Positions 13,889-58,481 of a stretch of DNA of 64,000 nucleotides are shown here, piece after piece (positions within the stretch are counted from its first letter, which is position 1; each line of letters starts with the position of its first letter). The translations under genes and the position numbers were made by a program. Origin of the DNA: Desulfomonilia bacterium (GTDB lineage Bacteria > Desulfobacterota > Desulfomonilia > UBA1062); the NCBI GenBank assembly GCA_963664325.2, contig CAXXDQ010000007.1, forward strand, positions 224,001 to 288,000, written 5' to 3'. Below the pieces are notes generated by a model. It had not been told where the DNA came from. It made no database searches and saw only the letters and a list, made by a program, of their open reading frames with translations.

Positions 13889-14791
13889 TTATGTGGTGTG
13901 AATACCACGTTCGATAAATATTCGTTCATATGCCTTGAGCTGTTCGGGCTTCATGAATTTCTTCATTTTTTCCGGGATAAGGCGTGCTCCTCCAAATTTC
14001 TCCAGTTTGTACGGCCACAACGGATTATATGCAAGCAGCCTGACCCTGTCAAAGCCGCATGAGATAAGAAAATCAGCGACTGCATTAAGGTTAGAGTCAG
14101 TATCGGTAATACCTGGTACAAGAGGTACCCTTGGAAGTATTTCCTTGTCTTTCATATTGGAGAGTACCCTGAAGTTTTCAAGGATATTCTCGTTACTTAC
14201 TCCACAATATCTTTTATGTTCATTGTCGTCTAAAAGTTTGATGTCAAAATATATTTCATCAAGTTTAGGATATATTTTTTCAAGAAATGAGACCATATCA
14301 AAAAAGCCGCAGGTTTCAAGCAAGGTGTGTATCTTGTGCCTTTTCAATTCTGTCAGAAGCTCAGAACAGAAATCCATGAACATGGTCGGTTCTCCACCTG
14401 AAAGAGTAACACCGCCGCCGGATGTATCAAAAAAAGGTTTGTCATTTACAACACACGCCACAATATTTTCAATACTCATGCTTTTTCCTACAATACCGAG
14501 TGCGCCTGTAGGGCAGATGCTTGTGCAGGTAAAACACTCCAGACACCTTGAACGATCAACTCTATGTTTGTCATCATAGGTTATTGCATCTTGGCTGCAA
14601 ATCACTGCACAGGCAAGGCATTTAATGCATTCCTTGCTGTCGAATGAATGTTCGAACCATGGTTTCATGCCTTCCGGATTATGGCACCAGACACATGACA
14701 GGGGACAGCCTTTCATGAAAATGACGGTCCTTATTCCTGGACCGTCATCAAGGGAATTGCCCTTTATTTCGAATATCAGCGGTTTCTTCAT
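13889..14791 (-). CDS. Glycyl-radical enzyme activating enzyme (radical SAM with ferredoxin insert)
   Basis: DGPGIRT, GCPLSCVWCHNPE (CxxxCxxC), two extra CxxCxxCxxxC clusters, GGVTLSGGEP. Confidence 0.95.
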   Translation of the reverse strand: MKKPLIFEIKGNSLDDGPGIRTVIFMKGCPLSCVWCHNPEGMKPWFEHSFDSKECIKCLACAVICSQDAITYDDKHRVDRSRCLECFTCTSICPTGALGIVGKSMSIENIVACVVNDKPFFDTSGGGVTLSGGEPTMFMDFCSELLTELKRHKIHTLLETCGFFDMVSFLEKIYPKLDEIYFDIKLLDDNEHKRYCGVSNENILENFRVLSNMKDKEILPRVPLVPGITDTDSNLNAVADFLISCGFDRVRLLAYNPLWPYKLEKFGGARLIPEKMKKFMKPEQLKAYERIFIERGIHTT

Positions 14792-17748
14792 ATACCGTAT
14801 TCGGCCCTTTCAATAAGTTCAATCTGCATGTCATGGTTGAGCGTTGTGAAATATGCATTGTATCCGGAGATCCTGACAAGCAAATGCTGGTAGTTTTCAG
14901 GATTAAGCATGGCATCCCTCAGTGTATCGGTCGAAACGACATTGAACTGCATCTGCATTCCGCCAAGGTCGCTGTAGGTCTTGATATAGGAATAAATGTG
15001 CTCGACAGAGTCTTCATGTGAATCTGCTGCTGAAGGAACGACTTTGACATTGAATGCAATGTTATTATTCATGTTGAGAGGGTCAAGCCCGGAAACATCT
15101 CGGATATTATCAAGCAGGTTCTTCGATGCATGGGCTTCGGGGGTAAGTCCCGGCGTAAAGGCCTTTCCTGAAAGCCTGCCTGACGGGAGCGCCCCTGTCA
15201 GGCTGCCGAAGGCTACATGATTCGACATTGACCAAAATCCCGCCGTATAAGGCCCTCCCCTGAAATTCCTATGGGCACCATAGCAGTCATGAGCAAATTT
15301 TGTTATCCTGTTCGCTATTCCGAGGGCTTCTGACGAGCCTGAGCCGAAAAGCGGCACCTTTTTTCTGGCCATTGCATGAAGAGCCGGATCATTTATGAAA
15401 TTATTCCTTACGGCTTCCTTCATTTTTGTAAAACTTACTTTCTTTTCTTCAAACACAAGTTTTTTTATTACCATCATTGAATCAGTAATGTCAGCAAGGC
15501 CTATACATGCCGCACCGGAAGAGTTATGCTTTGCTCCGCCCTTTGTCATATCAATACCGCTCTTTATGCCATTATCGATAAGGGATGAAATAAAAGGCGT
15601 AGGCCTTATTATGCTGTGAGCCTCACCGAGTATGTTGTTGTATTCAATCGAATTATCAATCAGGAACCTGAACTGATCGGTAAAGGCCTTATAGAAACTT
15701 TCAAAGGAGTCGAAGTCCTCACCAGTTTTAGGTCCGACCGATAGATTCATCAGAGGATGCCGGCCGTTATTAAGCGCCATCTCAAGTGCAGCGACCATAT
15801 TCATCATCATGCAGTTCGTGTGGCCTATATGCTTTCCTGAAAGGGTCGGCTCCACGCAACCTGTTGCCGACCAGTCCCTGAGATCTTCCAAGGGGTAGGA
15901 AAATTCCTCGAGTGATTTCATCACTGCCGTATCGCTGTGGATCGAAGGCGTTGCCGTTGTGATAAGATTTACTTCGGAGAGGCGCCTGAGATAGGTATCA
16001 CTGTTTTTTTCCTTGTTATAGCGGGCGTTGACATTAGGATCTCTTATCCCAAGCATCTCGGTAACCTTGAGGAAAATGTACGTCATGTCATTAACGGCAT
16101 CATCGCCTTCGGGGGTGACACCTCCGAGGGTGATGGCCTGATCGGATGAACTGCCTCCAAAAAGATAATTCCCAATGTCAGGTATTAGCGGGAGATGGTC
16201 TGTGCACCTCATATAGAAACAGCCGACAAGCTCCAGGGCTTTTTTTATGTAGGCCTTCTGTTCATCTATTGTTTTAAGTTTGTCAATGTCAGAGGTAAAG
16301 AAAGGCTGCAGCCACTGATCGAGCCTTCCGAAAGAAAAACCTGCATTCGTGTTTTCCATATGAACACCAACCCATCCGATCCACAAACAATTCACAGCCT
16401 CATCAAGCGTTTCACAGGGATTTTCAGGTACTTTGGAACAGATTTCTGAAATTCTTAATAGCTCTTTCTTCCTTGCCGGATCATTTACATTTTCTGCATC
16501 TGCCGCTGCCTGAAGTGAAAGATTTCTGGCATAGGATGCAAGGCCTTCGAGACAGAGTATCATGGCGTTTAATGTTGCAATTTTTGTTTTTTCTGTTGGA
16601 TCGACATGCAAAAGCTCTTTTTCAATCTCACTTATAATCCCTTTTGTTCCAAGCCTGAAAAGCTTCGGGAAGTCACAGATCGTGTGTGAGAGTGCAACAG
16701 TCTTCCACAGGAAATAGACCGCAAAGCGCTCGTCGAGCTGCTGGCAAAGCGGGTTGTTATATTTTGACCTTACCCATTCCCTGACATTTTTCCTGGCCCA
16801 ATAGGGGAAGACATCATGGTGAAGCATATTTATCGTTTCAACAGACACGTCATACGGGTTCAAGGGCCTGTAAGGCGCTGTCAGCAGTTCACCCCAGATA
16901 AGAGTCCCGCTTGTGTCAGGGTAAATTACTACGCCGATCGGTTTGGTGGTTGTTGTACCTGCTATCAGGTCGTTCTCGGCAATAATGGGTTTCCTGTTTT
17001 CCATCAGATACTTGAATGCATAACCTTGTCTGAGTTCGGCTTCCCAGGCCGTTCCGTCAGGTTTGAATTCAAACCCGTTATTCCTGAAAAATTCGGTCAG
17101 CAGCACGGGTCTTTCAGCACAGATTTCAGGCCTGTGCGAGAAATGTCTGTCAAGTGATGTGCTGAGCCTGGGAAAGTCTTCCAGCGAGTAATGGCTGAGA
17201 TAAGGATCTTCAAGGTGCTTTACACCAGGGTCAATCGACAGGGTTTTCAGTCTGGTCCTTTTTTTCTCAATCGCAACAGGTTTGCAAGTCTTTTGCTTTG
17301 CTTCAGCCTTTTTCACTTTTTCAATCTCCTGAGACCTGAGCATTGTGCTGATCTGCTTGTTTTTCATCAGGACCGATATAAGGAAGTTAAAGACCTGCAG
17401 ATAGCACATATTGCCCTGAGTAATCATGCGGTTTTTAAGTAGCAGGTTAAGAACTTCGTTAGGCGGCAGGTTTATCATCTGCCTGAGCGTTTCTTCATCA
17501 GTAAATACAAGGCTGCAGTCGGCATCATACGGAATACCGTCGTGGACTTTGGCTTTACCGTTTTTAAATGAAATAGACTTGTTTACCGAATTGTTTACTG
17601 TTCTGATTCCAACCGTAAAATCAATCCATCCGTCAACTGAACGCAGGTATTTCCTGATTCCCGGCCTGAGGTTGACATTTGCGGCCATAAGCTTGAGGAG
17701 TATTCCGGCCAGTACGTTTGTCGGCGACTTGAAAATTTCTTTCACCAT
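14788..17748 (-). CDS. Glycyl radical enzyme (PFL2/eliminase-like) with N-terminal SCP2-like extension
   Basis: GCVEP thiyl loop (Cys codon 15856-15858) and C-terminal LLVRISGY glycyl loop, with ~150 extra N-terminal residues. Start taken at ATG 17748. Confidence 0.92.
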   Translation of the reverse strand: MVKEIFKSPTNVLAGILLKLMAANVNLRPGIRKYLRSVDGWIDFTVGIRTVNNSVNKSISFKNGKAKVHDGIPYDADCSLVFTDEETLRQMINLPPNEVLNLLLKNRMITQGNMCYLQVFNFLISVLMKNKQISTMLRSQEIEKVKKAEAKQKTCKPVAIEKKRTRLKTLSIDPGVKHLEDPYLSHYSLEDFPRLSTSLDRHFSHRPEICAERPVLLTEFFRNNGFEFKPDGTAWEAELRQGYAFKYLMENRKPIIAENDLIAGTTTTKPIGVVIYPDTSGTLIWGELLTAPYRPLNPYDVSVETINMLHHDVFPYWARKNVREWVRSKYNNPLCQQLDERFAVYFLWKTVALSHTICDFPKLFRLGTKGIISEIEKELLHVDPTEKTKIATLNAMILCLEGLASYARNLSLQAAADAENVNDPARKKELLRISEICSKVPENPCETLDEAVNCLWIGWVGVHMENTNAGFSFGRLDQWLQPFFTSDIDKLKTIDEQKAYIKKALELVGCFYMRCTDHLPLIPDIGNYLFGGSSSDQAITLGGVTPEGDDAVNDMTYIFLKVTEMLGIRDPNVNARYNKEKNSDTYLRRLSEVNLITTATPSIHSDTAVMKSLEEFSYPLEDLRDWSATGCVEPTLSGKHIGHTNCMMMNMVAALEMALNNGRHPLMNLSVGPKTGEDFDSFESFYKAFTDQFRFLIDNSIEYNNILGEAHSIIRPTPFISSLIDNGIKSGIDMTKGGAKHNSSGAACIGLADITDSMMVIKKLVFEEKKVSFTKMKEAVRNNFINDPALHAMARKKVPLFGSGSSEALGIANRITKFAHDCYGAHRNFRGGPYTAGFWSMSNHVAFGSLTGALPSGRLSGKAFTPGLTPEAHASKNLLDNIRDVSGLDPLNMNNNIAFNVKVVPSAADSHEDSVEHIYSYIKTYSDLGGMQMQFNVVSTDTLRDAMLNPENYQHLLVRISGYNAYFTTLNHDMQIELIERAEYGI

Positions 17749-17901
17749 ACCTACCCCCTGCACATGATTGTTATACGGTGATAAATGATGCACAATTATC
17801 CGATATTAATTAATATGTGTCCAGATATTTGGATTACGGCATGAAAACAAGGTTAGGTTATAAATTTACGCTTGAAGAAAATTGGAATGAGCACCGTAAT
17901 G

Positions 17902-18528
17902 CTACTGCCTGTATGAAAGTATGATGTCCTCGATAATCCTTTCAGCCATCATTTCAATTTCCGGCTCGACCTTTTTTAGTCCATGGCCGTTGCAAAGGTT
18001 AACAACACCATTGAGCAGCATCCATATCTTAATCACATTATACATTATATCATCTTCTTCCAGATAAGGGACTGCATCCTTCATGGCCGAAAAGGCAACT
18101 TCAATGACCTTCATGGCGATCTGCCTTTCCTCCTGAACAGCTTTCTCCATATCAGTGCCTGCATAGTCGATATATCTGGACAAATTCCGGCTGAACATTA
18201 TTTCATAGTAATCCGGATTCTTTATCCCGAAGTCTATGAATATTCTGATGATAGCTTCAAGCCTTTGAAGAGGGTCATTATTATTCCTGAATATCTTATT
18301 GATTATCATATAAAGTTTTTCAAAGCCCCGGGCCTGAATAAGAAGATATATTTCATCCTTATTATTGTAGTAGTTATAGATATTGGCAGCTGTCATACCA
18401 AGCCGTGATGCAAGCTTTCTCATGCTCAGATTTGAGAACCCGTCATTCACGATTATATTGAGAGCAGCCCTTAATATCCTGTCTTTGACGCTTAATATTT
18501 CTTCTGCTTTTCTTGCTGTTTTAGCCAT
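17902..18528 (-). CDS. TetR/AcrR family transcriptional regulator
   Basis: N-terminal HTH: GFSNLSMRKLA..GMTAANIYNYYNNKDEI. Confidence 0.93.
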   Translation of the reverse strand: MAKTARKAEEILSVKDRILRAALNIIVNDGFSNLSMRKLASRLGMTAANIYNYYNNKDEIYLLIQARGFEKLYMIINKIFRNNNDPLQRLEAIIRIFIDFGIKNPDYYEIMFSRNLSRYIDYAGTDMEKAVQEERQIAMKVIEVAFSAMKDAVPYLEEDDIMYNVIKIWMLLNGVVNLCNGHGLKKVEPEIEMMAERIIEDIILSYRQ

Positions 18529-18549: not shown

Positions 18550-20550
18550 TTATTTTAAAATTGCTCCAATCGCGAGATAACCTCCGTTCGCCTTAAGCCC
18601 TATAAGTCCCATCTCAAAGACCGGCAAGTCATTACAAATTGCGGCTATCAATTTGTTGTTATCTTTATTCAGTTCTGTCAGAAGCTCTTTGGCCCTGGCA
18701 TCATCAATTACCAGCGGTGTTTTCTCAAGCCAGGGTTTCATGAGTTCAAGTATCTGGGGCATCAGATTTTTAACAGCTCTTTCGATATCAATGGCTTTTT
18801 CAAGACCAAGCCTGTCTGCAAGATAGTAAATATTGAATTCATTGAGCTTCAGATTGAGTCTGAGATAAGGATTGCCACCCTGAAAAAATACTTGTGTTTC
18901 TACTTCCGTAACAAGATCAATGGCGACTTCAAGCTGCTGGCTAGCATTCATGTAAAGGCCTGTTTTCAGGTTTGGCACATAGAGTTTTATTATCCCGTCT
19001 CTGAAATCAAGGAAAGGCGGTCCGCCAAACACAATATCCGCTTTCATGTCGGCTGGAAGTCCGAGGTCGGGCAGAAGCTTTCCGACCTCAAGGCTCAGAC
19101 CGAACCCGGCCTCGTTCAATGCCGCGAGCATGCCGTTTATCGAATCGGCTGATACTGCCAAAGCCATATTATCATCAATCTTTACTGTATCAAGAGCTTC
19201 AGACAGGGTTATTAATGGCGGAAGGCTTATCACACCATTATCCTTACCCGAATTTGATTTTTCTCCAAGACCTGCCATTAATCCGATATTATCTGTTGCT
19301 CCCGTGAATTTTTCCAGTTCCGCGCTAATCGATAAATCCCTTATGCCGAGAATCGAATCAATGAGCTCATTTTTCCCTTTTTCAGGCAGTATGCTTTCAT
19401 CAATAGTAATCGGAGGAATGTTGGTTATTATAAGACCAAGACCTTTCTTATTGACTAAAGTGTTTAGCGCATTGCTGACAATACCCGCAAGCCACCCCTT
19501 AACCGGGAGCTTCATGTAGTATGTATCGGGGCTCAACCCGAGGCCGTCGAGGAAATTTGTCAGTATGATCATGCTGGGGATGTCGGCTTCAAGTTCTTTA
19601 AGGTTGAGATCAAGCGATGAGATTTTCACGACTAATCCATTGATATCCTTTATCCCCATCTTGAGAGAAAGGTCTGCTGAAATGGCATATAGTTCAAGAA
19701 CAACCTTTGTATCTGCAAGACCACCTGGAAATTTAATGTCGCCAAGACTAATGAATTTAATATCAGCTGATATCTCGATCCCTTTGAGATTCATATCGGT
19801 AAAGAGTCTTGCCGTATCGGCATCTCCTGGTTCATTGGCATATAACTGGTTTATCGATACATCAAAACCTGTTTTGATGTTTATTCCCGTCAGCTTCAAA
19901 TCAGCGACAGCCTTGAATGGTTCGGTGATTTCCACCGTTATATAATGGTCCGTATCAAAGTCCTTTTTGCCGACAGATTCATTGAGGAGGTCAGCTATGA
20001 CAGATGTGAACTCAGTTGGCAGGGCAAGTGTGGAGTTGCCTAATATCACTCCCACCGCATTACTTGATTTTGTTCCGGATGCGACACTTGGCCCCCTTAA
20101 TAGTGAAGTTCTGTCGCGACCAGCATATCCCTTCGCATCAATGGCCGAAGCTTCAATTGCTACAAACGGGCTCGAATCAGAAGGCAGAGGTAGCTCGACT
20201 GAAAAGCTGTTGTCAGAAGAAATATGAGCATCCGAACCATTAACAAGAAGTGAAACAATCTTCTGATTACCATTACTGACGGTCCCTGTGACGACTATGC
20301 TCTGCTGGTCCAAACCTATTACCTTCCCGCTTGAGGGGTATGTTATTCTCACAACAGGTGGAACATATCCCTCTGGATAGTTGATGCTGCCTCCCGGCTC
20401 TTCTCCAGTTGGTCCGGCAGTGTATTCAGTCTGTGGTCTGTAATCCTCGGTACCGATTCCCCCCGAACCTGAACATCCCGAAAGCATGCCCAGCAATATA
20501 ATAAAAAGCACTGTATATATCTTTTTTAAAGTCTTTTCATTGTTCCCCAT
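18550..20550 (-). CDS. Large lipoprotein, Ig-like N-domain plus possible BPI/LBP (TULIP)-like lipid-binding region
   Basis: Lipobox LSGC, then a beta-rich PVVRITYP..VTGTV Ig-like segment. The C-terminal NMALAVSADSINGMLAALNEAG resembles the BPI C-domain; fold call is inference. Confidence 0.65.
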   Translation of the reverse strand: MGNNEKTLKKIYTVLFIILLGMLSGCSGSGGIGTEDYRPQTEYTAGPTGEEPGGSINYPEGYVPPVVRITYPSSGKVIGLDQQSIVVTGTVSNGNQKIVSLLVNGSDAHISSDNSFSVELPLPSDSSPFVAIEASAIDAKGYAGRDRTSLLRGPSVASGTKSSNAVGVILGNSTLALPTEFTSVIADLLNESVGKKDFDTDHYITVEITEPFKAVADLKLTGINIKTGFDVSINQLYANEPGDADTARLFTDMNLKGIEISADIKFISLGDIKFPGGLADTKVVLELYAISADLSLKMGIKDINGLVVKISSLDLNLKELEADIPSMIILTNFLDGLGLSPDTYYMKLPVKGWLAGIVSNALNTLVNKKGLGLIITNIPPITIDESILPEKGKNELIDSILGIRDLSISAELEKFTGATDNIGLMAGLGEKSNSGKDNGVISLPPLITLSEALDTVKIDDNMALAVSADSINGMLAALNEAGFGLSLEVGKLLPDLGLPADMKADIVFGGPPFLDFRDGIIKLYVPNLKTGLYMNASQQLEVAIDLVTEVETQVFFQGGNPYLRLNLKLNEFNIYYLADRLGLEKAIDIERAVKNLMPQILELMKPWLEKTPLVIDDARAKELLTELNKDNNKLIAAICNDLPVFEMGLIGLKANGGYLAIGAILK

Positions 20551-20583: not shown

Positions 20584-21954
20584 CTAAAATTTGAATTCTG
20601 CGGAAATGCCTGCTGCAAAACCATAGCCGGACAGCGTTATCTGTTCTCCTGTCTCTGCTTTCGTGTAATCCCTGTCGATTAGGTAATGATACTGAACCAT
20701 TGTCTGTATGCTTATGGGTTTGCTCCAGTATCTGCCAGGCTTGTCCCATCTGTTTTCAGTCCCGATGCTGAATATGTGCTTGTCGTTGTCGAGAAAATTT
20801 GTCGTCCCTGTCTGATCGGGAACAGGAGATTTCCAGAATGAATACCCTCCCCTTACAATCATGTCGCCAAGCCATTTGTTTGAATATACTACACCCTTCT
20901 CCACCCCGGCTCTTATATTAAGTACGTCTTTAAAGGACGGGGACGGATCACTATGAAGCACATCAATATATCCGGACCACTGCATCCATGTAAGGTCTGC
21001 ACTCAACCTGAGATCGCTGTCAAACCTGTATGCCGCACCAAAGGCCCATTGCGAAGGTGAATAATAGTGAGCAAAATGGTGGTTGTAATCAAAAGAGATT
21101 GTCAGAGGCTGACCGTCAGGGTTCTGAGGATTCTGGACCCGGACATCGACATGATTGGTGCCATAGTCATCCATGTAAAGCTCATCCCGCCATGACAGGC
21201 CGAATGAAAGTTTTTCATTAGGTTTTATCTGCACTCCCACAATCGGCGAAACTGAGGCTTTGGTTTTCTGGTCTTCCGCTATATCCCCTGTAACACTGAC
21301 ATATTGAGAATTTCCGTTCGGGCCTAGAAAATCTTTAACAATTTCGTTTATTGCCTGCTCGCTTACATAAACAGGGCCTTTGCTGTTTGTTTCAAGTTCA
21401 AGAAGGATGTTAGCGCTGATACCTAGTGACAGCCATTTTACCGGTTCATATCCCAGACCTGCCACAGCAACAAGCCTGTGCAGATCATCATAATAAAAGA
21501 TATAGCGCTCCTCTTCGGGAAGTTGTGTCCTCCACCAGTACAGGCTGTCGGTCGGGATCAGAAAAGTCCCGCCTAATACAAGAGGAGTATTCTCCAGATA
21601 CTTTGAAATGCCCCTGATGTCAGCGCTGAAATTAAATCCGATATTCGTAACCGAATCCTGACCTGAGGGTGTATGTTTTCCATTTATCGAACTGTCAACA
21701 GTTCCTTTCAGATCAAATGTTGAAATGCCGAATTCGCTGGTTAGACCTATATCCTTGAAGAAGTTAATTCCGGTAAGACCTGCAGGGTTTGTGTATGCCT
21801 CAGATCCGTCAAGGGATGACGCAACCCCAGTGCCTGCCATTGATTGAGACCTTATACCAAGTCCGCAGATTTCACCCATCGAAGCATAAAGCATTGCTGG
21901 GAATATTGTATTTGAGATCATGAAAATAATTAATATGGAGGTCTTTTTCACCAT
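20584..21954 (-). CDS. OmpP1/FadL-like outer-membrane channel
   Basis: Signal peptide, SMAG..A hatch motif, YTNPAGL, TWMQWS, C-terminal FKF. Start at ATG 21954 after GAGG. Confidence 0.85.
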   Translation of the reverse strand: MVKKTSILIIFMISNTIFPAMLYASMGEICGLGIRSQSMAGTGVASSLDGSEAYTNPAGLTGINFFKDIGLTSEFGISTFDLKGTVDSSINGKHTPSGQDSVTNIGFNFSADIRGISKYLENTPLVLGGTFLIPTDSLYWWRTQLPEEERYIFYYDDLHRLVAVAGLGYEPVKWLSLGISANILLELETNSKGPVYVSEQAINEIVKDFLGPNGNSQYVSVTGDIAEDQKTKASVSPIVGVQIKPNEKLSFGLSWRDELYMDDYGTNHVDVRVQNPQNPDGQPLTISFDYNHHFAHYYSPSQWAFGAAYRFDSDLRLSADLTWMQWSGYIDVLHSDPSPSFKDVLNIRAGVEKGVVYSNKWLGDMIVRGGYSFWKSPVPDQTGTTNFLDNDKHIFSIGTENRWDKPGRYWSKPISIQTMVQYHYLIDRDYTKAETGEQITLSGYGFAAGISAEFKF

Positions 21955-21956
21955 GC

Positions 21957-23342
21957 CTAGAACCTCACCTTCCATGTAATGCCAGTGTTCCAGAGGGTTC
22001 CACCATATTTGACTGATATGCCGCTTACATCCTTGGCTACCTCGGAATCAGGCATGTACTGGCATTGTACATGGAAATCCAGGTCCGAATTCTTGAAGCT
22101 GTATCCGGCGCCTCCGCAAATGATATGGGTATCTCCGTCAATATAATTATAAACTCCTGTCTGTTCAGGAACCGGAGTCGGTCTGTACATGTAGCCGGTT
22201 CTCAATTTTATTTTTTCGGTAACAGAATATTCAAGACCAAGTTTCGGATTCAAAGTGTCTTTGAACTCGGACTCCGGCGTTTCAAGATGAGGTCCTTCAT
22301 ATCCGGACCACTCGGAATACGTAAGGTCAAATGAAGCTGTGATTCTTGATCCCTTTAATCCTATCCCGAACGTATATTCTCTGGGAGAAAAAAATGAATT
22401 GTGAGCAAGATCTACCTTTATGACCGGGATTTTATCCGCCAGAGTCTGGTTGACATTGCCATTCTTGTCCACAGGCAGGATATACAAGTACTGATAGCCG
22501 GTGGAATCAGCGCTTATCTTGTCTCTAAAGCTGAAGCCCAGGCTGAGCCAGTCTATGGGCTTATAGGTAAGACCTGCATAAAGAGCGGCATTGAGAACCA
22601 GTTCCCTGTTTACTGCGACCTTTGCATCGGCGCTGTTGCTGACATCAATATTAAGTTCTTCAATAAGTTTACTCAGGTCGCCGATGTTGTCAACAACGTC
22701 ATTGGTATCAACCTTGAGCGTTATATGGGTATCCGTATCCATAAGTCTGAGCAGGAGCTCGGAACCGATGCCGAGTGAGAACTTATCACCTATGTTCTTG
22801 GAGAGGGCTGCATAAACACCAAGGCCTTTGGCCACATCGTTGTAAACAGGAAAAAAGTAATCTCTTGCAGTTTCCGGGATGTCGATATCAAGTATCGCCT
22901 GTGTGGGAACAAAACAGGAAATGCCGAACATAAAACCTTTCATGTGATGTTCAAGTCTGCCGAGATTCATCACGAGCCCTGCGGTAATGGCTTTTACATT
23001 CTCATCATCTTTTACCACACTACCAGCGCTGTCACTTATTTTAAAGTCAGGCATGACATACATTGCGCCGATGCCTAACTGAAGCCATTCATCTTTCTTC
23101 AATGCGAAATTAAGGCCTGATGGATTGTAGTAAGCGGCAGTGTAATCATCGGAAATCGCCGTCATTGCGCCGGCCATTGAAGAGGCCCTTGAGGAAAGTC
23201 CAAGAAAAGATGCCGTATCAGCTACGGCATCTGTCTGGAAAAATAAAACAAGGAAAAGGGGCAAAAATACGTATTTAAAATAACCGAATAAATCTGGCAT
23301 CCTGTGGCACATACTGTTAACCATGAGCGCAGCCACATACAC
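21957..23342 (-). CDS. OmpP1/FadL-like outer-membrane channel
   Basis: SMAGAMTAISDDYTAAYYNPSGL FadL signature, YSEWS, C-terminal VRF. Exact start is uncertain. Confidence 0.88.
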   Translation of the reverse strand: MYVAALMVNSMCHRMPDLFGYFKYVFLPLFLVLFFQTDAVADTASFLGLSSRASSMAGAMTAISDDYTAAYYNPSGLNFALKKDEWLQLGIGAMYVMPDFKISDSAGSVVKDDENVKAITAGLVMNLGRLEHHMKGFMFGISCFVPTQAILDIDIPETARDYFFPVYNDVAKGLGVYAALSKNIGDKFSLGIGSELLLRLMDTDTHITLKVDTNDVVDNIGDLSKLIEELNIDVSNSADAKVAVNRELVLNAALYAGLTYKPIDWLSLGFSFRDKISADSTGYQYLYILPVDKNGNVNQTLADKIPVIKVDLAHNSFFSPREYTFGIGLKGSRITASFDLTYSEWSGYEGPHLETPESEFKDTLNPKLGLEYSVTEKIKLRTGYMYRPTPVPEQTGVYNYIDGDTHIICGGAGYSFKNSDLDFHVQCQYMPDSEVAKDVSGISVKYGGTLWNTGITWKVRF

Positions 23343-23654: not shown

Positions 23655-24341
23655 CTAAATCCATCCAAGTATCCCCATGAAAACTATAAGGCATATGAGG
23701 TCAAATCCCAGGATTGATCCAACAGTTATGGCTTTTGCCTTTACTGTTTTCATATCATGGACCCAATATGCAACCAGATAGAACGGGAAATATCCAATCA
23801 GCCAGATTATGAACGGGAACTTGATCCTCCACCATGAATATTCCCAGGTAAGAGCATTCAGTGCATTCAAGATGATTTCTATGATAACGCTCAGCGTGGT
23901 AAAGAATATGATGAAGAACCACCTGTTCGGCATCCCAAGGATTTTCATATTCTTGTCTTCAGGCAGGATTATGGTTGTGGCGATTCCAAGTATCAAGAAC
24001 ATGAAGCATATTTCTATGTTCAGCCCGATAAGGATCAGATATGCGGTATCGCCGCCCGGGGCTCCCCATACTGGGGCATACTGGGTAAAATAGAATACGA
24101 GGCCGTTCCATATTTCATTGAACCAGTCCATTCCCCAGAGTGCAAGACCTGCAAAGACTACGCTCCAATTCTTTTTGGCCACCTGTGTGTGGTATATGTA
24201 AATGACCATTACAAGAAATGGTATAACATACCATTTGAACGTTGCCGGGTCTCTCAGAATGCCGAGCGACTGAATCGAATACTGCGTCATGTTGTCCATG
24301 TTTTTGACAATTGATAGAGCCTGTTCGGAAAATCCGTTCAT
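23655..24341 (-). CDS. Hypothetical integral membrane protein (~6 TM)
   Basis: Strong SD (GGGAGG). Hydrophobic helices containing polar motifs DWFNEIWN and NIEI. Confidence 0.75.
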   Translation of the reverse strand: MNGFSEQALSIVKNMDNMTQYSIQSLGILRDPATFKWYVIPFLVMVIYIYHTQVAKKNWSVVFAGLALWGMDWFNEIWNGLVFYFTQYAPVWGAPGGDTAYLILIGLNIEICFMFLILGIATTIILPEDKNMKILGMPNRWFFIIFFTTLSVIIEIILNALNALTWEYSWWRIKFPFIIWLIGYFPFYLVAYWVHDMKTVKAKAITVGSILGFDLICLIVFMGILGWI

Positions 24342-32223: not shown

Positions 32224-32240
32224 CATTTTGGAGGTTGACT

Positions 32241-34169
32241 ATGGGTAAAGGTTATATGGGAAAAATATTGTGGGTCGATTTAACCTCAGGAGAAATCAAA
32301 GAGGAGATCATTCCAGACGATGTCTATGAAAGATACCTGGCCGGCCTTGGACTGGGTGCTCATATCTGTTATGAAAGAATCCCGGCAGACGCAGACCCGC
32401 TTGGCCCGGATAACATACTCGGAATACTGCCCGGGCTTTTAACCGGGACAGGCAGCATTTTTTCAGGCAGATGGATGGTCGTCGGAAAATCACCCCTGAC
32501 CGGCGGATGGGGTGATGCAAATTGCGGCGGAACATTTGCACCGGCAATTAAACGTTCGGGATATGATGGTATATTTTTTACAGGTATCAGTGAAAGACCG
32601 GTTTATCTTCATATAAAAGACGGCAGGGCCGAACTTAAAGATGCATCGAGATACTGGGGTAAAGATGCGGTTGAATCGGAAGAGGCTTTTATTGAAGAAC
32701 ACGGCAAAAACGCCAAAGTTGCGGTGATAGGTCCAGCAGGCGAAAGACTGTCTCTGATTGCAGGCGTCTGCAACGAAAAGGGCAGAATCGCAGCCCGCTC
32801 CGGGCTTGGCGCTGTCATGGGTTCAAAGCGACTCAAAGCGGTTGTTCTCGACGGTAAACAGCGAATTGAAATCACCAACAAATCCCGGATGAAAGACCTT
32901 ACCGAAAAGAGCCTCAAGTTCATCAATATAAAGATCCCCCTTCCTGGAGGATGGTTCCTTCCTCTGGTTGGTGCAATGATGCGGATGATGCCCACGCAGA
33001 TGATGCAGGACGGCTTTTTATTCAAGCTTCTCTTGTCGAAGTGGGGTACTATTTTCCAGAACCAGTACTCACTTGAGGCCGGCGACTCTCCAGTAAAAAA
33101 CTGGAAGGGAAGTCTCATTGATTACAACAGAAAAAAGTCATCCAGGACCAATCCTGATCTTATCTGCAACAGGGAATTAAAGAAATACCACTGCTACTCT
33201 TGTCCGATAGGCTGCGGGGGGATATGCAGCATGAAAGGCAAGTATCACGAGACGCACAAGCCCGAGTATGAGACGGTTCTGGCGCTCGGCGGGCTTTTAA
33301 TGAATGATGACCTCGAAAGCATTTTTTACTTGAATGAATACCTCAACCGTGCGGGCATGGATTCAATATCGGCTGGCGGCACAATAGCCTTTGCCATGGA
33401 ATGTTTTGAAAATGGCATACTTACAAAAGAGGATACGGGAGGGCTTGATCTTTCATGGGGAAAGAGTGACGCGATAATCAAGCTGGCAGAGATGATGGTC
33501 GAGCGCAGCGGTATAGGCGATATCCTGGCGGACGGTTCGAAAAAGGCATCCGAGAAGATCGGCAGGGGCAGTAATGATTATGCAATCACTGCAGGCGGTC
33601 AGGAACTGCCGATGCACGACAGCAGGAACGATCCGGGCTATGCACTTCATTACAGCGCGGAGCCTACCCCCGGAAGGCATACAATAGGCTCTCAGCTTGG
33701 ATATGAAATGTATCAGCTCTGGAAGATGGTTTCCGGCATGCCCAAACCGATACACTTCTATCACAAGAATTCAAAATATTTGGTTGATGAAAGAAAGGCA
33801 AAAATGGCAAAGGCCTGCAGCGACTATATGAACGTAATAAATGCAAGCGGCCTGTGCTGGTTCGGCGCCATGATGGGGTGCACGAGAGTTCCCACATTTG
33901 ACTGGCTGAATGCAGCCACAGGCTGGAATAAGTCGGCGGACGAGTACATGGAAATTGGTGCACGTATTCAGACAACCAAGCAGGCATTCAATGTAAAGCA
34001 CGGAATCGATCCAGTCTCGTTCAGGATTAAGGACCGCTGTGTCGGCGTTCCAACGCTTACCGAAGGTGCAAATAAGGGACGAAAGGTTGATGTCGATGGA
34101 CTTATGAACACTTACTGGAAGGAATACGGCTGGGATGAGAAAGGCAGGCCCGCCTCCGACTCATATTAA
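32241..34169 (+). CDS. Aldehyde:ferredoxin oxidoreductase (tungsten AOR family)
   Basis: KSPLTG, IGPAGE, RSGLGAVMGSK.LKA, CYSCPIGCG, PEYET, GMDSIS. Confidence 0.93.
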   Translation: MGKGYMGKILWVDLTSGEIKEEIIPDDVYERYLAGLGLGAHICYERIPADADPLGPDNILGILPGLLTGTGSIFSGRWMVVGKSPLTGGWGDANCGGTFAPAIKRSGYDGIFFTGISERPVYLHIKDGRAELKDASRYWGKDAVESEEAFIEEHGKNAKVAVIGPAGERLSLIAGVCNEKGRIAARSGLGAVMGSKRLKAVVLDGKQRIEITNKSRMKDLTEKSLKFINIKIPLPGGWFLPLVGAMMRMMPTQMMQDGFLFKLLLSKWGTIFQNQYSLEAGDSPVKNWKGSLIDYNRKKSSRTNPDLICNRELKKYHCYSCPIGCGGICSMKGKYHETHKPEYETVLALGGLLMNDDLESIFYLNEYLNRAGMDSISAGGTIAFAMECFENGILTKEDTGGLDLSWGKSDAIIKLAEMMVERSGIGDILADGSKKASEKIGRGSNDYAITAGGQELPMHDSRNDPGYALHYSAEPTPGRHTIGSQLGYEMYQLWKMVSGMPKPIHFYHKNSKYLVDERKAKMAKACSDYMNVINASGLCWFGAMMGCTRVPTFDWLNAATGWNKSADEYMEIGARIQTTKQAFNVKHGIDPVSFRIKDRCVGVPTLTEGANKGRKVDVDGLMNTYWKEYGWDEKGRPASDSY

Positions 34170-44915: not shown

Positions 44916-45770
44916 TTACCCGAGCTTTTCCGAATAATCTTCATGCTGCCTGTATAAATGAGGCCTGTAACCGTCAGGCGCATTGTCTGCCGGGTCTCTG
45001 GGCAGGATCGGCTCACGGAGTTTCTTCATTGAAATGGCCTTTTCCGGGCATTCGTAAACACAGAGTCCGCAGCCGAAGCAGTTTTCGGCAGTGAGGCTTT
45101 TACCGTCTGCGAGTTTCCTCGCATCGAACGGGCATATCTCGATGCACTTCGAACAGGCCTTGCATTTGCTCCTGTCTGTTTGTGCGGAAAAGAACCCGTC
45201 AATAAGCGGGTAATCAAGCTGTCCGAGTTCCCGGTTGATTATGTATGGAACGCACCCGCATGTGCAGCAGTTGCATATGGCGTATTCGTTGTAGAGATTG
45301 ACCGGGCAGTGAATAAAGACCATGTGGAACATCTTTCTTTCATGGCAGGACTTGATTATCGCCCTGGCCTCTTCTTTTGATATCCGACGGTAATCCTTGG
45401 GGAACGCCTTCATCCATGCATGATAACCAGTCCTGAAAACGATGTCTGTTTCCATGGGATGGCTGCATGCCTTATGGCCTATGCGGCACCGGCAAGGGCC
45501 GACCGCAATAGGGCCTTCCTGCTCATCGATGAGCTTAATCAGCTCATCATACGGGATCGGGCGGGCCGAATCGCCGAGGTAACCGAACGGCCTTGCAAGC
45601 GCTACCCCTGCAGCCTTTTTAAACCAGCCGATCTGTCCGACCCTTTTCCACTTGCCGCGCAGCAGCTGATAGCACAGAAGCAGCAGCGGTATCTCGATAT
45701 ACCGTGCGAAGATGAAGAGCAGAAAGCGCCTAAGAGGATTATCTTCGTTTGAGAAAGGTTTGAATTCCAC
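44916..45770 (-). CDS. 4Fe-4S binding protein
   Basis: CRCR..C, ICNCCTCGC and two CxxCxxCxxxCP clusters; GTG start. Confidence 0.85.
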   Translation of the reverse strand: MEFKPFSNEDNPLRRFLLFIFARYIEIPLLLLCYQLLRGKWKRVGQIGWFKKAAGVALARPFGYLGDSARPIPYDELIKLIDEQEGPIAVGPCRCRIGHKACSHPMETDIVFRTGYHAWMKAFPKDYRRISKEEARAIIKSCHERKMFHMVFIHCPVNLYNEYAICNCCTCGCVPYIINRELGQLDYPLIDGFFSAQTDRSKCKACSKCIEICPFDARKLADGKSLTAENCFGCGLCVYECPEKAISMKKLREPILPRDPADNAPDGYRPHLYRQHEDYSEKLG

Positions 45771-45773
45771 GAT

Positions 45774-46667
45774 CTAAGCCTCTTTACCGTAGGACGGGGC
45801 CATCGTATGCCCCTTGGCCTTTGCCGCTTCAAGGAGGCGTTTCCTGATTTTATCAAGCCTGCCCAGTCTCGGGTCACCCGGCAACTTTCCAGGATAGTCA
45901 AGATGGGGTTCAATCTTGAGAAACATCTCATACGGGTAACCCGAGGTCATGTCATCCGGTTCGTTCTTGCCCCAGGCCACTCCGCCTGTGCAGAAATAGC
46001 TGATATTGGCCTTTTTCGTCTGCCTCGGGATGACGAAACTGTTCCGGCACATGCTCATGTTAGCCATGTAGCGCGTGATGAACTTATCGAAGATTTTTGT
46101 CACATAATCGCTCTTGAATATAAAAGTTGTGAACCTGTGCCAGAGCGTGAACCTGTTCAGCAGCGACAGTGTCCGGTTGATATACTTTATCGAAATCGCG
46201 GACAGGCCTGTGGGCGGCATCATCCTGAACGTATTCAGGGATGTCTGGTCCTGTTTGAACTTTTCAGGGTCAATGAAGCTGTCCCAGCCGAGCAGGTCTA
46301 TGATCCTTCTGTAGTTGTCGGGATTAGTCCTGATAATCACGCCGTCCGGCGTTACACCTTTTTTGAAAAGGTGCAGAGGTGCCACGTATATGCCCTGTAT
46401 CGCCAACGGGTCGAGGTGCGGCTCTATCGTTCTTTCAAAATCGTTCCCTGGATGTTTGAACCCGAGTACCACAGGCGACCATTTGCATATTTTTATAGAG
46501 TTTGCATTTATAATTAGCTCCATCCCGAAAGTCGCACCGAATATTCCCTGGCAGTATGAGACCCCGGAAAAATGGATCGTGTCCTTGAGCTCATCAAGCA
46601 GCTTTTCATCAAGCAGCTTAATGCCTATTGGCGGCAATTCGAGTTTCATCAACCGGTCTTCCTTCAT
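45774..46667 (-). CDS. DUF169-like protein
   Basis: PPIGIKL, YCQ, C..S..VLG, PDGVII, C..S..P, FCTG pattern. Confidence 0.65.
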   Translation of the reverse strand: MKEDRLMKLELPPIGIKLLDEKLLDELKDTIHFSGVSYCQGIFGATFGMELIINANSIKICKWSPVVLGFKHPGNDFERTIEPHLDPLAIQGIYVAPLHLFKKGVTPDGVIIRTNPDNYRRIIDLLGWDSFIDPEKFKQDQTSLNTFRMMPPTGLSAISIKYINRTLSLLNRFTLWHRFTTFIFKSDYVTKIFDKFITRYMANMSMCRNSFVIPRQTKKANISYFCTGGVAWGKNEPDDMTSGYPYEMFLKIEPHLDYPGKLPGDPRLGRLDKIRKRLLEAAKAKGHTMAPSYGKEA

Positions 46668-46673
46668 ATTCCC

Positions 46674-47864
46674 TCACATCTTGAAACGTCTGGGATCAAG
46701 GTATTTCGGCAACGCATTAATGCCGATTCCGATAGCCATCTGCACGGCTTTTTTCGTATTCGTCCTTTCAACCTTTTCACCGAGTGCCTCTCTCGCATAT
46801 TCTATAACATGCCTGAGACGTTTGCCGAAAGGATTTACCAGCCTGAATATGCCCAGGGTCAGAAGACAGCCGGTGCAGTATAAGGCGGCTTCATCCGCAT
46901 CCGATTTGTCCAGGGCGATAAGGCCTTTCAGCCCGCACTTCGAGAGGTCTATAAGGCTGAAACTGTTGCAGCCTGCAGCCACGCCGCAGCAAAGACCGTG
47001 TTCATGGTGTTGTTCCGTCTCTATCACCTCAAGCCCGAGCATTTTTAAAAGATTGCGCTGGCTTTCCATGAAATCTTTCCCGAGCACCCTTGCATGACAG
47101 GAGTCATGCATCACGACGTTGCCTGATAATTTCTTTTTAATATCGAATGTACCGTCCTCGATTCTTTTTATGAACCAGTCCGTGAAATATGTCTTTTTAA
47201 AGTCAAACCTCGCACCGAACTGCCGGGGCAGTACATCTGAAAACATGTTATACCCGGCAGGACACACGAATACAAGTTCTTCGATCCCCTTGTCTTTATA
47301 AAATTCTGTCAGGTGCCTTGCTGTCTTTCTTACCGGTTCAAGGGCGCCCATCCTGAAAAACATCTCGCCGCAGCACAGGTCCCACCTGCCCCATACCGGG
47401 AGTTTTTCAAATATGGCACCTTCGGCAAGCAGCGGCATTGCAAGAAGGTTGCAGCCCGGATAAAGGCAGGTCTTTGAAGGAGGCGCAGCTGAGCCCCATT
47501 GCTCATGGAGGGCTTTTTCCCTGTTCGTATATTTCAGGCTCTGCCTGAAATTGGGAAGCCTTCCCGGCATGAGATAGCTGGCGCGCGCCGGCAGCCCTTC
47601 CCTCTCATACCTGCTATTCCATATGTAATGTATTCTTTCATAAGGGTGCGCACCATTCGGGCAGAAGGCATTGCAGGCATAGCAGCTCATGCATTCCTTT
47701 GCCGCAATTGATTTTTCATGAAGTCCAAGGTTTATCTTCCGGATGTCCTCAATTGCATCCTGTCTTGAAAATTTTATATAACGGCAGTTTACCAGGCATT
47801 CTCCGCATTCGGTGCATTTGTGCCAGCCTAGAACCTCCCTGAATTCTTCGATTGCATATGACAT
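46674..47864 (-). CDS. Fe-S oxidoreductase with CCG domains (HdrD/GlpC-like)
   Basis: Two CxxCxxCxxxC clusters plus YPGC, CCG, CPAG, HDSCH, CCG, CTGC. Confidence 0.85.
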   Translation of the reverse strand: MSYAIEEFREVLGWHKCTECGECLVNCRYIKFSRQDAIEDIRKINLGLHEKSIAAKECMSCYACNAFCPNGAHPYERIHYIWNSRYEREGLPARASYLMPGRLPNFRQSLKYTNREKALHEQWGSAAPPSKTCLYPGCNLLAMPLLAEGAIFEKLPVWGRWDLCCGEMFFRMGALEPVRKTARHLTEFYKDKGIEELVFVCPAGYNMFSDVLPRQFGARFDFKKTYFTDWFIKRIEDGTFDIKKKLSGNVVMHDSCHARVLGKDFMESQRNLLKMLGLEVIETEQHHEHGLCCGVAAGCNSFSLIDLSKCGLKGLIALDKSDADEAALYCTGCLLTLGIFRLVNPFGKRLRHVIEYAREALGEKVERTNTKKAVQMAIGIGINALPKYLDPRRFKM

Positions 47865-47888
47865 TGAACCTCCGCAGCATGCCGGAAA

Positions 47889-48332
47889 TCATCCGGCCTG
47901 ATCTTCATCTTTACCAATTGCAGGATAAATCAATATACCCAGCGACACCAGGAGAAGACTGACATCCCTCAGCATGTACCACCAGGTAATCCTTGCCGCA
48001 TTGGGATCTGTGGTAAAACATCCGCAGGAGATGTCAAGCCCGCGCATGAGGCTTGCGCAAAGCGCTGCTGCAAATATAAGAAGCATGCCTGAAATTGCGA
48101 GAGATCCCCCCCCGATGAATATGCCGCTTACTACGCAGAACCCGGCAACTATCTCGATTGGCGGCATGGACAGGGCGGCCAGATTTACCAGGAAGCCGTT
48201 TGGCAGAATCCTGTATGCGTCAATCGCCTTTGCAAACGCTGCCGGATCCGACCAGTGAGTTATACCGGTATATATGAACATTCCCCCGATTACGAGCCTT
48301 GCCAGGAAATAAATTATTCTTTTCAGGCTCAT
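47889..48332 (-). CDS. MauE/DoxX family redox-associated membrane protein
   Basis: RGLDISCGCF motif. Start ATG 48332 overlaps the rhodanese stop. Confidence 0.85.
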   Translation of the reverse strand: MSLKRIIYFLARLVIGGMFIYTGITHWSDPAAFAKAIDAYRILPNGFLVNLAALSMPPIEIVAGFCVVSGIFIGGGSLAISGMLLIFAAALCASLMRGLDISCGCFTTDPNAARITWWYMLRDVSLLLVSLGILIYPAIGKDEDQAG

Positions 48333-48835
48333 CTGCCGGACTCTACTGGGTACCCAGACTGGCTCCATGCTTCCCAGCCTTCTGGCATCACCTCAATGTT
48401 TGTAAACCCGGCTGCTTGAATTGCTTTGGCTAGTTCATCAGCCAGCGGACAGTCCCTGCCCTGGCAGTAGACAATAATAAGCTTTGATCTGGCTTTCGGG
48501 TTTTTGGACTCCATGTTGAATCTTTTGCCGGGAGGTATATTATGAGCATGAGGGATATGACCGGCATCAAAATCATATTCGCTCCTTGCATCAATAAATA
48601 TGGCGGAATCCGACCGGAAAGCCTTGAATCCATCCCAAATGCTGATCTTCGCGATGGCATTTGCCTGCTGTCCTGTCTGCTGGGAAGATTGCGCTGGCTG
48701 CTTGACACTGTTTTTCGCAAGCTCCAGCCTGTCCGCCCGGAGGCTGTTTGCAGCTAGTCCTATTATAATGCCTGCCGCAACTATTATCAGAGCCTGCAGG
48801 ATGCCTTTAAGAATCAATTGTTTCAATTTTTCCAT
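48329..48835 (-). CDS. Membrane-anchored rhodanese-like protein
   Basis: IDAR..F..GHIPHA, YCQGRDC, EGWEAW..GYP; N-terminal TM. Confidence 0.88.
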   Translation of the reverse strand: MEKLKQLILKGILQALIIVAAGIIIGLAANSLRADRLELAKNSVKQPAQSSQQTGQQANAIAKISIWDGFKAFRSDSAIFIDARSEYDFDAGHIPHAHNIPPGKRFNMESKNPKARSKLIIVYCQGRDCPLADELAKAIQAAGFTNIEVMPEGWEAWSQSGYPVESGR

Positions 48836-48868
48836 CTTTGACCTCGTTATGGTTGTTATATTAATAAG

Positions 48869-49633: not shown

Positions 49634-49635
49634 GG

Positions 49636-53193: not shown

Positions 53194-53194
53194 G

Positions 53195-55247: not shown

Positions 55248-55396
55248 TGACAAAACCCCATGCTGTTTTGTTGGATTTCATTCGTCAACAAAATCCGCAG
55301 GCTTATGCCGATACTGCGGTCGCATGATCGAATCAAGTCTCGCTCCATATAATCCGATACAATATAATTATAAAAATGGGACAGGAGGGGTGCAAA

Positions 55397-56836: not shown

Positions 56837-56964
56837 TCAGGCTGTTTGGAGGAAAAGATGTCTTAAAAAGGTCTTCAGGCAGATCGCAAGAACAGCGCCT
56901 GCTGATGCCTTTCGTTCGGCGAAAGGTCGTATCAATACACATGATTTCATGATAATTATTAATC

Positions 56965-57153: not shown

Positions 57154-57339
57154 ATACATGATTGTCGGGGCTTATGCTCTGGCATATCATGAAGCGCCTC
57201 GTTTTACAGGTGATATAGATATGTTTGTTCAACCTTCTCTGGAAAATGCAAAGAAAATCTTATCTGCACTGGCTGATTTTGGTGTCGAAAAAAAGATTTG
57301 GCAGACCTTGAATCTCTGGGTGAAGTGATTGATATATAG
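57095..57339 (+). pseudogene. Nucleotidyltransferase with internal deletion
   Basis: N-terminus IVGAYALAYH..PRFTGDID joined out of frame at 57284-57286 to the C-terminal RKKDLADLESLGE. Confidence 0.75.
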
Positions 57340-58480: not shown

Positions 58481-58481
58481 C

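Follow-up and report, generated by a model that had tools for sequence, protein, structure and literature searches.

The reverse strand of a 64,000-nucleotide stretch from a Desulfomonilia bacterium (GenBank assembly GCA_963664325.2, contig CAXXDQ010000007.1, positions 224,001 to 288,000; hereafter the window) encodes a glycyl radical enzyme (GRE; 14788..17748, -) between a TetR-family regulator and a GRE activating enzyme. An initial annotation of the DNA had described this protein as a GRE of about 986 aa whose extra N-terminus resembles the sterol carrier SCP2. The open frame (14788-17793, -) begins at a GTG; initiation at the ATG at 17748, which follows a G-rich Shine-Dalgarno-like run, gives 986 aa, and the alignments of homologues from other genomes to the GRE start at residues 1-10 counted from this ATG. 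Pfam recognises a PFL-like barrel (residues 205-848, E 2.3e-162, 542.4 bits against a cut-off of 24.3) and a Gly_radical domain (residues 864-968, E 7.6e-23, 81.5 bits against 22.2), leaving some 200 N-terminal residues outside all GRE models. Moreover, every string that the annotation had quoted (DFTVGIRT, SISFKNGKAKVHDGIPYDADCSLVF, LRQMI and LLLKNRMITQGN) is present in the translation. The gene product is a complete GRE, formed by the C-terminal 800 residues, to which a predicted SCP2 fold in the first ~130 residues is tethered by a Lys-rich linker that the model suggests to be flexible.

The fusion is a stable property of the family. A word-indexed search returned 994 proteins at E≤1e-3 among 7,999 scored, and the best 120 of these serve as the family set throughout. 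They are 64-100% identical to the window protein, and 119/120 are of 973-1025 aa with 98-100% query coverage, the single exception in length being situated on a 2.7-kb contig. Of the 120 closest relatives, 119 thus retain the SCP2-GRE architecture.

The N-terminal domain and its linker

We modelled the N-domain with AlphaFold2 (AF2) on an alignment of 45 N-domains from related genomes (alignment A1), which also served as the input of the profile searches. The model has a mean predicted local distance difference test (pLDDT) score of 79.1, with blocks within residues 11-90 at pLDDT 90-95, and is laid out as helix-helix, five strands and a helix, followed by a long helix at residues 129-153. Foldseek comparison with the PDB gave 36 matches at E≤1e-3, and those listed to rank 44 were all SCP2 proteins or the SCP2 domains of alkylsulfatases. 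The best match was UbiJ-SCP2 (6h6n, E 6.7e-6), with target TM values of 0.55-0.70 across the UbiJ-SCP2 chains. VIA-align, a search that does not depend on Foldseek, was run against 48,161 representative chains and placed SCP2 chains in all of the first ten positions (Z 11.6-8.0, rmsd 2.6-4.2 Å over 100-118 residues), with the next row at Z 6.1. The initial annotation stood or fell with an SCP2-like fold at the N-terminus, and this is the fold that is predicted and that both structural searches return at the top.

Pfam SCP2 is the sole match to residues 1-201 (E 0.12, 13.1 bits, below the cut-off of 21.3; profile positions 14-99 of 101). Among the 45 family N-domains, 23 match Pfam SCP2 at E≤1 (best E 1e-4), and any other Pfam family is matched by at most one member. 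Similarly, the A1 profile found four chains among PDB sequences at E≤10, all of them SCP2 (best E 0.12), and the identity of the N-domain to solved SCP2 chains is 11-18%. The signal from sequence alone is weak but one-directional. Taken with the predicted model, the assignment of an SCP2 fold to residues 8-130 (17359..17727, -) is well supported for a prediction.

The domain is joined to the barrel by residues 131-172 (17233..17358, -), which had been annotated as a Lys/Glu-rich linker and contain 10 Lys and 4 Glu in 42 residues. This is the least conserved part of the protein (mean column identity 0.39), and the stretch 155-168 has pLDDT <50 in the AF2 model. The SCP2 domain has itself diverged further than the catalytic part, with a median identity within the family of 45% vs 72% for the core.

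Several enzymes carry a catalytic domain and an SCP2 module in one chain, among them the alkylsulfatases SdsA1, Pisa1 and YjcS (2cfu, 2yhe, 4pdx) and human MFE-2 (SCP-2L domain, 1ikt). The predicted N-domain superposes on these and on UbiJ-SCP2 with Foldseek E-values of 6.7e-6 to 1e-4, and VIA-align gives Z 11.0 to 4pdx and 10.2 to 6h6n. Appended SCP2 modules help recruit hydrophobic substrates. The window protein differs from these enzymes in that the partner is a GRE, the SCP2 domain is N-terminal and the linker is long and charged. The design of SCP2 plus catalytic domain is known from alkylsulfatases and MFE-2 but is not known from GREs. A search of the literature outside subscription journals and supplements found no description of an SCP2-fused GRE; in a 2026 review of the superfamily (PMC13450708) the terms 'N-terminal domain' and 'N-terminal extension' are absent, and 'lipid' appears in the reference list only.

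Catalytic core and substrate pocket

The barrel (residues 205-848; 15205..17136, -) aligns with 2f3o, 1r8w and 5i2a. Both annotated catalytic loops are present. The Cys loop DWSATGCVEPT contains the segment GCVEP (residues 630-634; 15847..15861, -) with Cys631 and Glu633, aligned to Cys433 and Glu435 of glycerol dehydratase (GDH), and the glycyl radical loop RISGY (residues 959-963; 14860..14874, -) contains Gly962, aligned to GDH Gly763. Each loop is invariant in 120/120 family sequences. The Cys-Cys pair of true PFL is absent, as the annotation had it, because the residue preceding Cys631 is Gly630.

We mapped GDH positions onto the GRE by counting along the printed rows of the phmmer alignment. 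Five are retained: Cys433 (Cys631), Glu435 (Glu633), His164 (His355), Gly763 (Gly962) and Arg782 (Arg981). Of their equivalents, Cys631, Glu633, His355 and Gly962 are invariant in 120/120 family sequences and Arg981 is present in 119/120, with one gap. Seven other positions are replaced: N156 by F346, H281 by A469, S282 by G470, Y339 by D536, D447 by N645, Y640 by W839 and S642 by M841. These replacements are as firmly fixed as the catalytic set, with F346, G470, D536, N645, W839 and M841 invariant in 120/120 sequences and A469 in 115/120. We take all seven GDH residues to be contacts of the distal part of glycerol, and the position of Y339 is presumably F in propanediol dehydratase (PD). Therefore, the residues at the assumed glycerol-distal positions, F346, A469, G470, D536 and N645, suggest that the distal end of the substrate may be large and hydrophobic. 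In the alignment, the pocket positions that would define the substrate differ from those of GDH, are fixed in the family and have moved to small or hydrophobic residues, with an Asp and an Asn besides.

For three of the retained residues the roles in GDH are described: Cys433 abstracts hydrogen, Glu435 of the Cys-x-Glu motif takes the proton from the hydroxyl of the substrate, and His164 donates one to the hydroxyl that leaves (PMC13450708, section 5.6). Cys-x-Glu is common to all GRE eliminases (section 5.6) and is also present in GRE isomerases (section 5.7). The machinery for carbinol-radical chemistry is intact in the window protein, with every residue required for making and using the glycyl and thiyl radicals in place.

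None of the curated GRE families would accommodate the enzyme, as all NCBIfam thresholds are missed. The highest score is to TIGR01774, the PFL2-3 subfamily (478.8 bits vs a cut-off of 678.2), followed by HypD (398.2 vs 1100), CutC (377.6 vs 1050), HpsG (370.7 vs 1000), HpfG (352.5 vs 1000), indoleacetate decarboxylase (248 vs 1100), HPAD (200.9 vs 1150) and PFL TIGR01255 (96.7 vs 994.2). The closest solved chains in a search of PDB sequences are 2f3o (382.6 bits), 1r8w (368.5) and 5i2a (350.9), with MasD (9o8u, 217.9), TutD (4pkc, 197.3), HPAD (134.3) and PFL (77.5) more distant; residues 1-183 are covered by none of the matched chains. The annotation had left the active site without an assignment to any known GRE, and indeed at H281, S282, Y339 and D447 of GDH the protein reads A469, G470, D536 and N645. 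Its proposal of a new eliminase class holds in part: the Cys-x-Glu and His set is present, no known set of specificity residues is found and no curated threshold is reached, and elimination itself is a deduction from a motif that isomerases share. 'New class' here means an uncharacterised one rather than new chemistry.

Among characterised enzymes, the B12-independent GDH of Clostridium butyricum (1r8w/1r9d) and the GRE PD (5i2a/5i2g) both match along the entire barrel (368.5 and 350.9 bits). They share with it the Cys-x-Glu loop, the equivalent of His164, the glycyl loop, the C-terminal Arg and an adjacent activase with a ferredoxin-like insert. Unlike them, the window GRE has ~200 extra N-terminal residues (SCP2 fold plus linker), and its neighbours are not those of a diol-utilisation locus. 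It departs from GDH at the seven mapped positions and in falling below the TIGR01774 cut-off. The enzyme would be expected to work as a GRE eliminase of the GDH/PD type, but it fails family membership at the substrate contacts and in the curated score.

The top solved match, PFL2/PflD of Archaeoglobus fulgidus (2f3o), covers residues 239-982 of the window protein and likewise has a single Cys, a Glu two residues on and the His. It is a 776-residue chain whose match begins at query residue 239, leaving the SCP2 region uncovered, and its pocket residues Q/A, N, D, C and Y stand against A469/G470, D536, N645, F838 and a Trp in the window GRE. Published work suggests that this enzyme takes a hydrophobic substrate (PMC8163825; PMC13450708). 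PMC8163825 also names the PflD-like GREs of Archaeoglobus and Asgard archaea Ass/Bss, that is, fumarate-adding enzymes, on the strength of the single Cys and similarity to PflD; the function of archaeal PflD is still debated between glycerol dehydratase and MASS (PMC13450708, section 7). By extension, the window protein could be a hydrocarbon-activating, alkylsuccinate-synthase-like enzyme to which the SCP2 domain delivers a long-chain alkane, and its first place for 2f3o favours such a view. Within the core, the evidence tells against it: MasD and TutD score far below the dehydratases, Cys-x-Glu together with the His is the signature of eliminases and isomerases, and five of the mapped active-site positions (A469, G470, D536, N645 and F838) differ from those of 2f3o itself.

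More distant are YbiW and PflD of E. coli (8id7, 8id0), GRE isomerases that open the cyclic ether of 1,5-anhydrohexitol phosphates. They share Cys-x-Glu with the window protein, at lower similarity (8id0 287.1 bits, 8id7 205.4). In contrast to what we envisage for the window GRE, their substrates are soluble sugar phosphates and they are without an SCP2 domain.

The cassette, its neighbours and its distribution

The gene directly downstream (13889..14791, -) encodes a GRE activating enzyme of the radical SAM type with a ferredoxin-like insert (Radical_SAM and Fer4; 284.9 bits to TIGR02494, cut-off 174.35). The two genes share 4 nt at the junction of GRE stop and activase start, and the activase is dedicated to the GRE and translationally coupled to it. 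The intergenic gaps are 153 nt between the TetR gene and the GRE and 148 nt between the activase and rpsF. With these gaps and the 4-nt overlap there is no room for small-subunit genes, and the annotation's statement that no small subunits of a fumarate-adding enzyme lie nearby is borne out at this locus, to which the check was confined, the rest of the genome not being searched. This bears directly on fumarate addition, since characterised X-succinate synthases have small subunits (alpha-beta-gamma, with delta in MASS; PMC13450708, section 5.5). Moreover, the activase reaches 192.1 bits against the BssD model (cut-off 496.45), less than it scores against the activases of HypD and HpsG.

Directly upstream of the GRE lies the TetR-family regulator (17902..18528, -; TetR_N, TetR_C_33). 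The gap between its gene and the GRE contains a perfect AT palindrome of 14 bp (17803..17816), flanked by -35-like and -10-like hexamers and placed 47 nt before the start of the GRE. It occurs once in the window vs 0.03 matches expected; a repeat search at the settings used reported nothing. We propose it only tentatively as a possible TetR operator, because it is not conserved in the two closest loci (L005 and L012). In most other loci the gap between TetR and GRE is only 20-60 bp.

The genes further upstream form a co-directional cluster headed by a 228-aa hydrophobic membrane protein that belongs to no Pfam family (23655..24341, -) and has homologues in 6/80 related loci by tblastn and in 4 by phmmer, 3 of these within 6 kb of the GRE. 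It is followed by two outer-membrane channels for hydrophobic compounds of the FadL/TodX family (20584-21975 and 21957-23342, both -), which match Pfam Toluene_X (E 6e-13 and 2e-22) and, weakly, the AupA and FadL NCBIfam models. Between the channels and the TetR gene lies a 666-aa lipoprotein of undefined fold (18550..20550, -), with the lipobox LSGC near its N-terminus and weak Ig-like Pfam matches. This lipoprotein has 13 homologues only among 5.8 billion clusters and adjoins the GRE only in the window, L005 and L012. An AF2 model from 12 sequences has a mean pLDDT of 38.5, and ~500 residues beyond the Ig-like domain are not folded in it. One Atlas cluster hints at an LBP_BPI_CETP-type lipid-binding domain (21% of the cluster, score 0.89), which we record as a lead only.

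An aldehyde:ferredoxin oxidoreductase (AOR; AFOR_N and AFOR_C) is encoded 14.5 kb from the cassette (32235..34169, +). Over 644 aa it shares 65% identity with the AOR next to TetR-GRE in a Desulfomonilia metagenome-assembled genome (L074) and is likely an orthologue of the AORs that flank the cassette in other genomes. In the window it adjoins an isochorismatase-family gene and rpsB.

We used the best 80 loci as the sample for counts of N-domains, taxa and neighbours; many are truncated, and their short flanks limit the neighbour counts. The order of the cassette is constant: TetR (upstream and co-directional), GRE, activase. A TetR homologue was found upstream in 38/80 loci by phmmer (within 6 kb) and in 40/80 by tblastn, and an activase homologue in 49/80 and 63/80, respectively. 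Beyond this, there are four clade-specific sets of neighbours. In 14 loci, mostly of Smithella type, the cassette is followed by an extended short-chain dehydrogenase/reductase (SDR) and a classical SDR; the best curated matches of the former are HpnA, OleD and SdmB, all far under their cut-offs. In a second set, a divergent AOR together with an Fe-S subunit lies upstream (9 loci). Its downstream side has a gene that belongs to the fatty-acid-CoA-ligase family and scores 733.9 bits to PRK12583 (within 6 kb in 11 loci), along with genes for an acyl-CoA dehydrogenase and an ADP-forming acyl-CoA synthetase; GlpK and MlaE are found a few genes upstream. In Actinomycetota loci, a class-III aminotransferase and a gene resembling acyl-CoA dehydrogenases precede the cassette, and PIG-L and PfkB genes come after it. 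The fourth set is that of the window, L005 and L012, in which the membrane protein, two FadL/TodX channels and the 666-aa lipoprotein precede TetR-GRE-activase. Taken together, an AOR, SDR, extended SDR, acyl-CoA ligase or acyl-CoA dehydrogenase lies within 6 kb in 34/80 loci; counted separately, 34 loci have at least 5 kb on both sides, and 19 of these show such a neighbour. Neither DUF2804 nor Hydrolase_4 showed a recurrent link to the cassette, each being found in 1/80 loci by phmmer.

All 80 loci come from metagenome-assembled genomes. By a hand count of the deposited labels, 43 are of Deltaproteobacteria/Thermodesulfobacteriota type (Smithella, Syntrophaceae, Desulfomonilia and others), 14 Actinomycetota, 9 Spirochaetota and 4 Bacteriovoracaceae; Chloroflexota and Myxococcota have 2 each, Bradymonadales, SAR324 and Bacillota 1 each, and 3 are unclassified. 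The N-domain is detectable in 77/80, and the remaining three (L054, L065, L076) start inside the gene. Within the taxonomic family of the window, 12/18 other genomes contain a match over the full length, SCP2 part included (at least 54% identity), as do 3/3 genomes of the same genus (82-83%). Among GTDB contigs taken at one genome per species, 408/418 pattern matches encode a relative. Thus the family is widespread, occurring in 408 species-level genomes from several phyla of uncultured anaerobes. Across many anaerobe phyla, the order TetR-GRE-activase, the signature of the active site and the fusion itself are conserved.

Searching 1.84 billion representatives with the A1 profile gave 336 clusters at E≤1e-3. 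Many of these are short and look like fragments from contig ends; others are of full length but share just 33-55% identity with the window GRE and vary at active-site positions. In three divergent full-length SCP2-fused relatives (P0179, P0201 and P0267) the catalytic Cys is replaced in the alignment, and P0179 has likewise lost the Glu and the radical Gly; P0179 and P0201 form long branches within the family clade. These may be inactive paralogues. Two loci carry tandem SCP2-fused copies (L009:1865-7978 and L023:3908-9899), 59-65% identical to the window protein.

To place the fusion we built an IQ-TREE phylogeny from the last 790 residues only, using SCP2-fused sequences and paralogues from the window's own genome, with no characterised GRE in the set. 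All 20 SCP2-fused sequences are separated from 5 unfused paralogues by a 100/100 branch, the outgroup branches being long. The one-sided placement therefore fits one ancient fusion followed by diversification, and hence a single origin of the SCP2-GRE architecture. The five intact paralogues (L081, L082, L084-L086) and their flanking ORFs gave no SCP2 match, and none of the five reached an NCBIfam equivalog. The 4.3-Mb genome holds at least seven further GRE-like genes (C7:76528-78465, C4:41542-43446, C7:86190-87674, C3:409498-411219, C5:38673-40208, C7:866949-869009 and C3:416129-418265), one of them a 1124-aa frame and one apparently split by an internal TGA.

Substrate, alternatives and remaining features of the window

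On balance we lean towards a GRE of the 1,2-eliminase type whose target is the hydroxylated head of a lipid and whose product is an aldehyde. The activase would install a radical on Gly962, giving a thiyl radical on Cys631, which would abstract hydrogen from a carbinol carbon of the substrate while Glu633 deprotonates the hydroxyl of that carbinol. His355, the counterpart of GDH His164, would protonate the leaving group on the neighbouring carbon, which could be water if the substrate is a vicinal diol or alkoxide if it is a glycerol ether, after which the hydrogen would be returned and an aldehyde released. The SCP2 domain would cover the lipid tail and pass the amphipathic substrate on to the channel. 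AOR could then oxidise the aldehyde and the fatty-acyl-CoA ligase activate it for beta-oxidation; alternatively, it could be processed by the pair of SDR-type reductases. In the genome of the window, the two FadL channels and the lipoprotein may import the substrate and TetR may sense it. A presumably enlarged and more hydrophobic distal pocket together with an SCP2 module points to an amphipathic, long-tailed substrate; AOR with acyl-CoA ligase, or the pair of reductases, fits the processing of a long-chain aldehyde, and the FadL channels fit the uptake of a hydrophobic compound.

A number of points weigh against this proposal. Net elimination is not the sole option, because Cys-x-Glu is shared by GRE isomerases. 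A shared SCP2 fold shows by itself neither lipid binding nor any function, and the 'sterol' part of a sterol-carrier role has no specific support. The residue mapping is taken from the phmmer alignment and not from a structure, and cited roles cover only Cys433, Glu435 and His164, those of the other GDH positions being assumed. Aside from TetR and activase the neighbours are heterogeneous: 46/80 loci, many of them short, are without aldehyde or acyl-CoA genes within 6 kb, and the FadL and lipoprotein neighbours recur in only 2/80 loci, both close kin (83% identity). Moreover, neighbour counts are not independent events, because the genomes are related.

A bolder version, which we consider unlikely, is that this is the first lipid-directed GRE, an anaerobic radical C-O lyase or dehydratase that works on the glycerol or polyol heads of hydrolase-resistant membrane lipids. 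Candidate substrates may include 1-O-alkylglycerols, archaeol-type ether lipids and the polyol side chains of hopanoid-like lipids. Hydrogen would be taken from a free carbinol and the neighbouring hydroxyl or alkoxide expelled, the SCP2 domain extracting the lipid tail from membranes or micelles. A precedent for ether cleavage exists in YbiW and PflD, Cys-x-Glu isomerases that cut the C-O ether bond beside a carbinol; their expulsion of an alkoxide there is the very step that an ether lipid would require (PMC13450708, section 5.7). The proposal is compatible with these ether-cleaving enzymes, with subsequent enzymes suited to an aldehyde that is passed on to fatty-acyl-CoA metabolism, and with the altered pocket at what we take to be the distal-hydroxyl site of GDH.

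Alternatively, a lipid-like substrate could undergo a reaction other than net 1,2-elimination, namely isomerisation with C-O or C-N cleavage in a ring or chain (as by YbiW, PflD and HplG) or decarboxylation. The isomerases retain Cys-x-Glu, E. coli-type PflD (8yjo, 302.2 bits) and HplG (7vua, 247.3 bits) are clear relatives, and the pocket residues agree with no characterised enzyme. However, the His that matches the leaving-group-protonating His164 is invariant, the AOR and SDR neighbours fit an aldehyde product, and the decarboxylases are more distant, both as a solved chain (HPAD) and by the indoleacetate decarboxylase model. We consider this distinctly improbable.

We are equally sceptical of a small soluble substrate combined with a non-carrier role of the SCP2-fold domain, which might tether the enzyme to the membrane, mediate its oligomerisation, control its activation or gate the channel. 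GREs do gate the substrate channel by accessory subunits or bulky residues (PMC13450708, section 4.3), and the lesser conservation of the domain, its weak sequence signal and the many loci without a lipid-related neighbour all suit such a role. Set against this are pocket changes towards more space and hydrophobicity (F346, A469, G470, W839, M841), the retention of the fusion not only in the 119/120 closest relatives but also across a well-supported clade with diversified active sites, and recurrent neighbours that are lipid or aldehyde enzymes. Lastly, fumarate addition to a hydrocarbon gains something from the FadL/TodX-type channels of the window cluster and from the many Smithella or Syntrophaceae hosts, but given the core residues, the activase and the lack of room for small subunits we hold it to be a poor prospect.

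The characterised GRE eliminases and isomerases of the 2026 review all act on small soluble molecules (PMC13450708, sections 5.6 and 5.7), and its sole hydrophobic GRE substrates are hydrocarbons, handled by multisubunit fumarate-adding enzymes. The window protein has a different design, a single-chain GRE with a built-in module of the lipid-carrier type and an invariant active-site signature of its own. If the substrate of the proposed eliminase is a lipid, the family would represent an unrecognised oxygen-free route for the degradation of amphipathic lipids, with a bearing on carbon turnover and on the preservation of lipid biomarkers in anoxic sediments, and on syntrophic digester communities. 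Should C-O bonds of ether lipids be cleaved, these lipids could be turned over without oxygen in sediments, in digesters and in bacteria that degrade prey.

Other features of the window were noted. A perfect sigma-70 consensus (14024-14052, -; TTGACA, 17 nt, TATAAT, 12/12) lies within the activase gene, towards its 3' end and ~280 nt ahead of rpsF. It could serve as promoter for the rpsF-rpsR-DUF2232-rplI-dnaB cluster next to the cassette. The interval 44916-50394 (-) holds redox and accessory genes for a Fer4 protein, DUF169, a CCG-domain protein, MauE, a rhodanese, a BcrAD/BadFG-type ATPase and an SDR. Finally, three PMT_2/ArnT-like glycosyltransferases, a two-component system, a DegT-type aminotransferase and an LPG-synthase-TM protein at 51625-63868 (+) look like a cluster for modification of envelope lipid or glycan.

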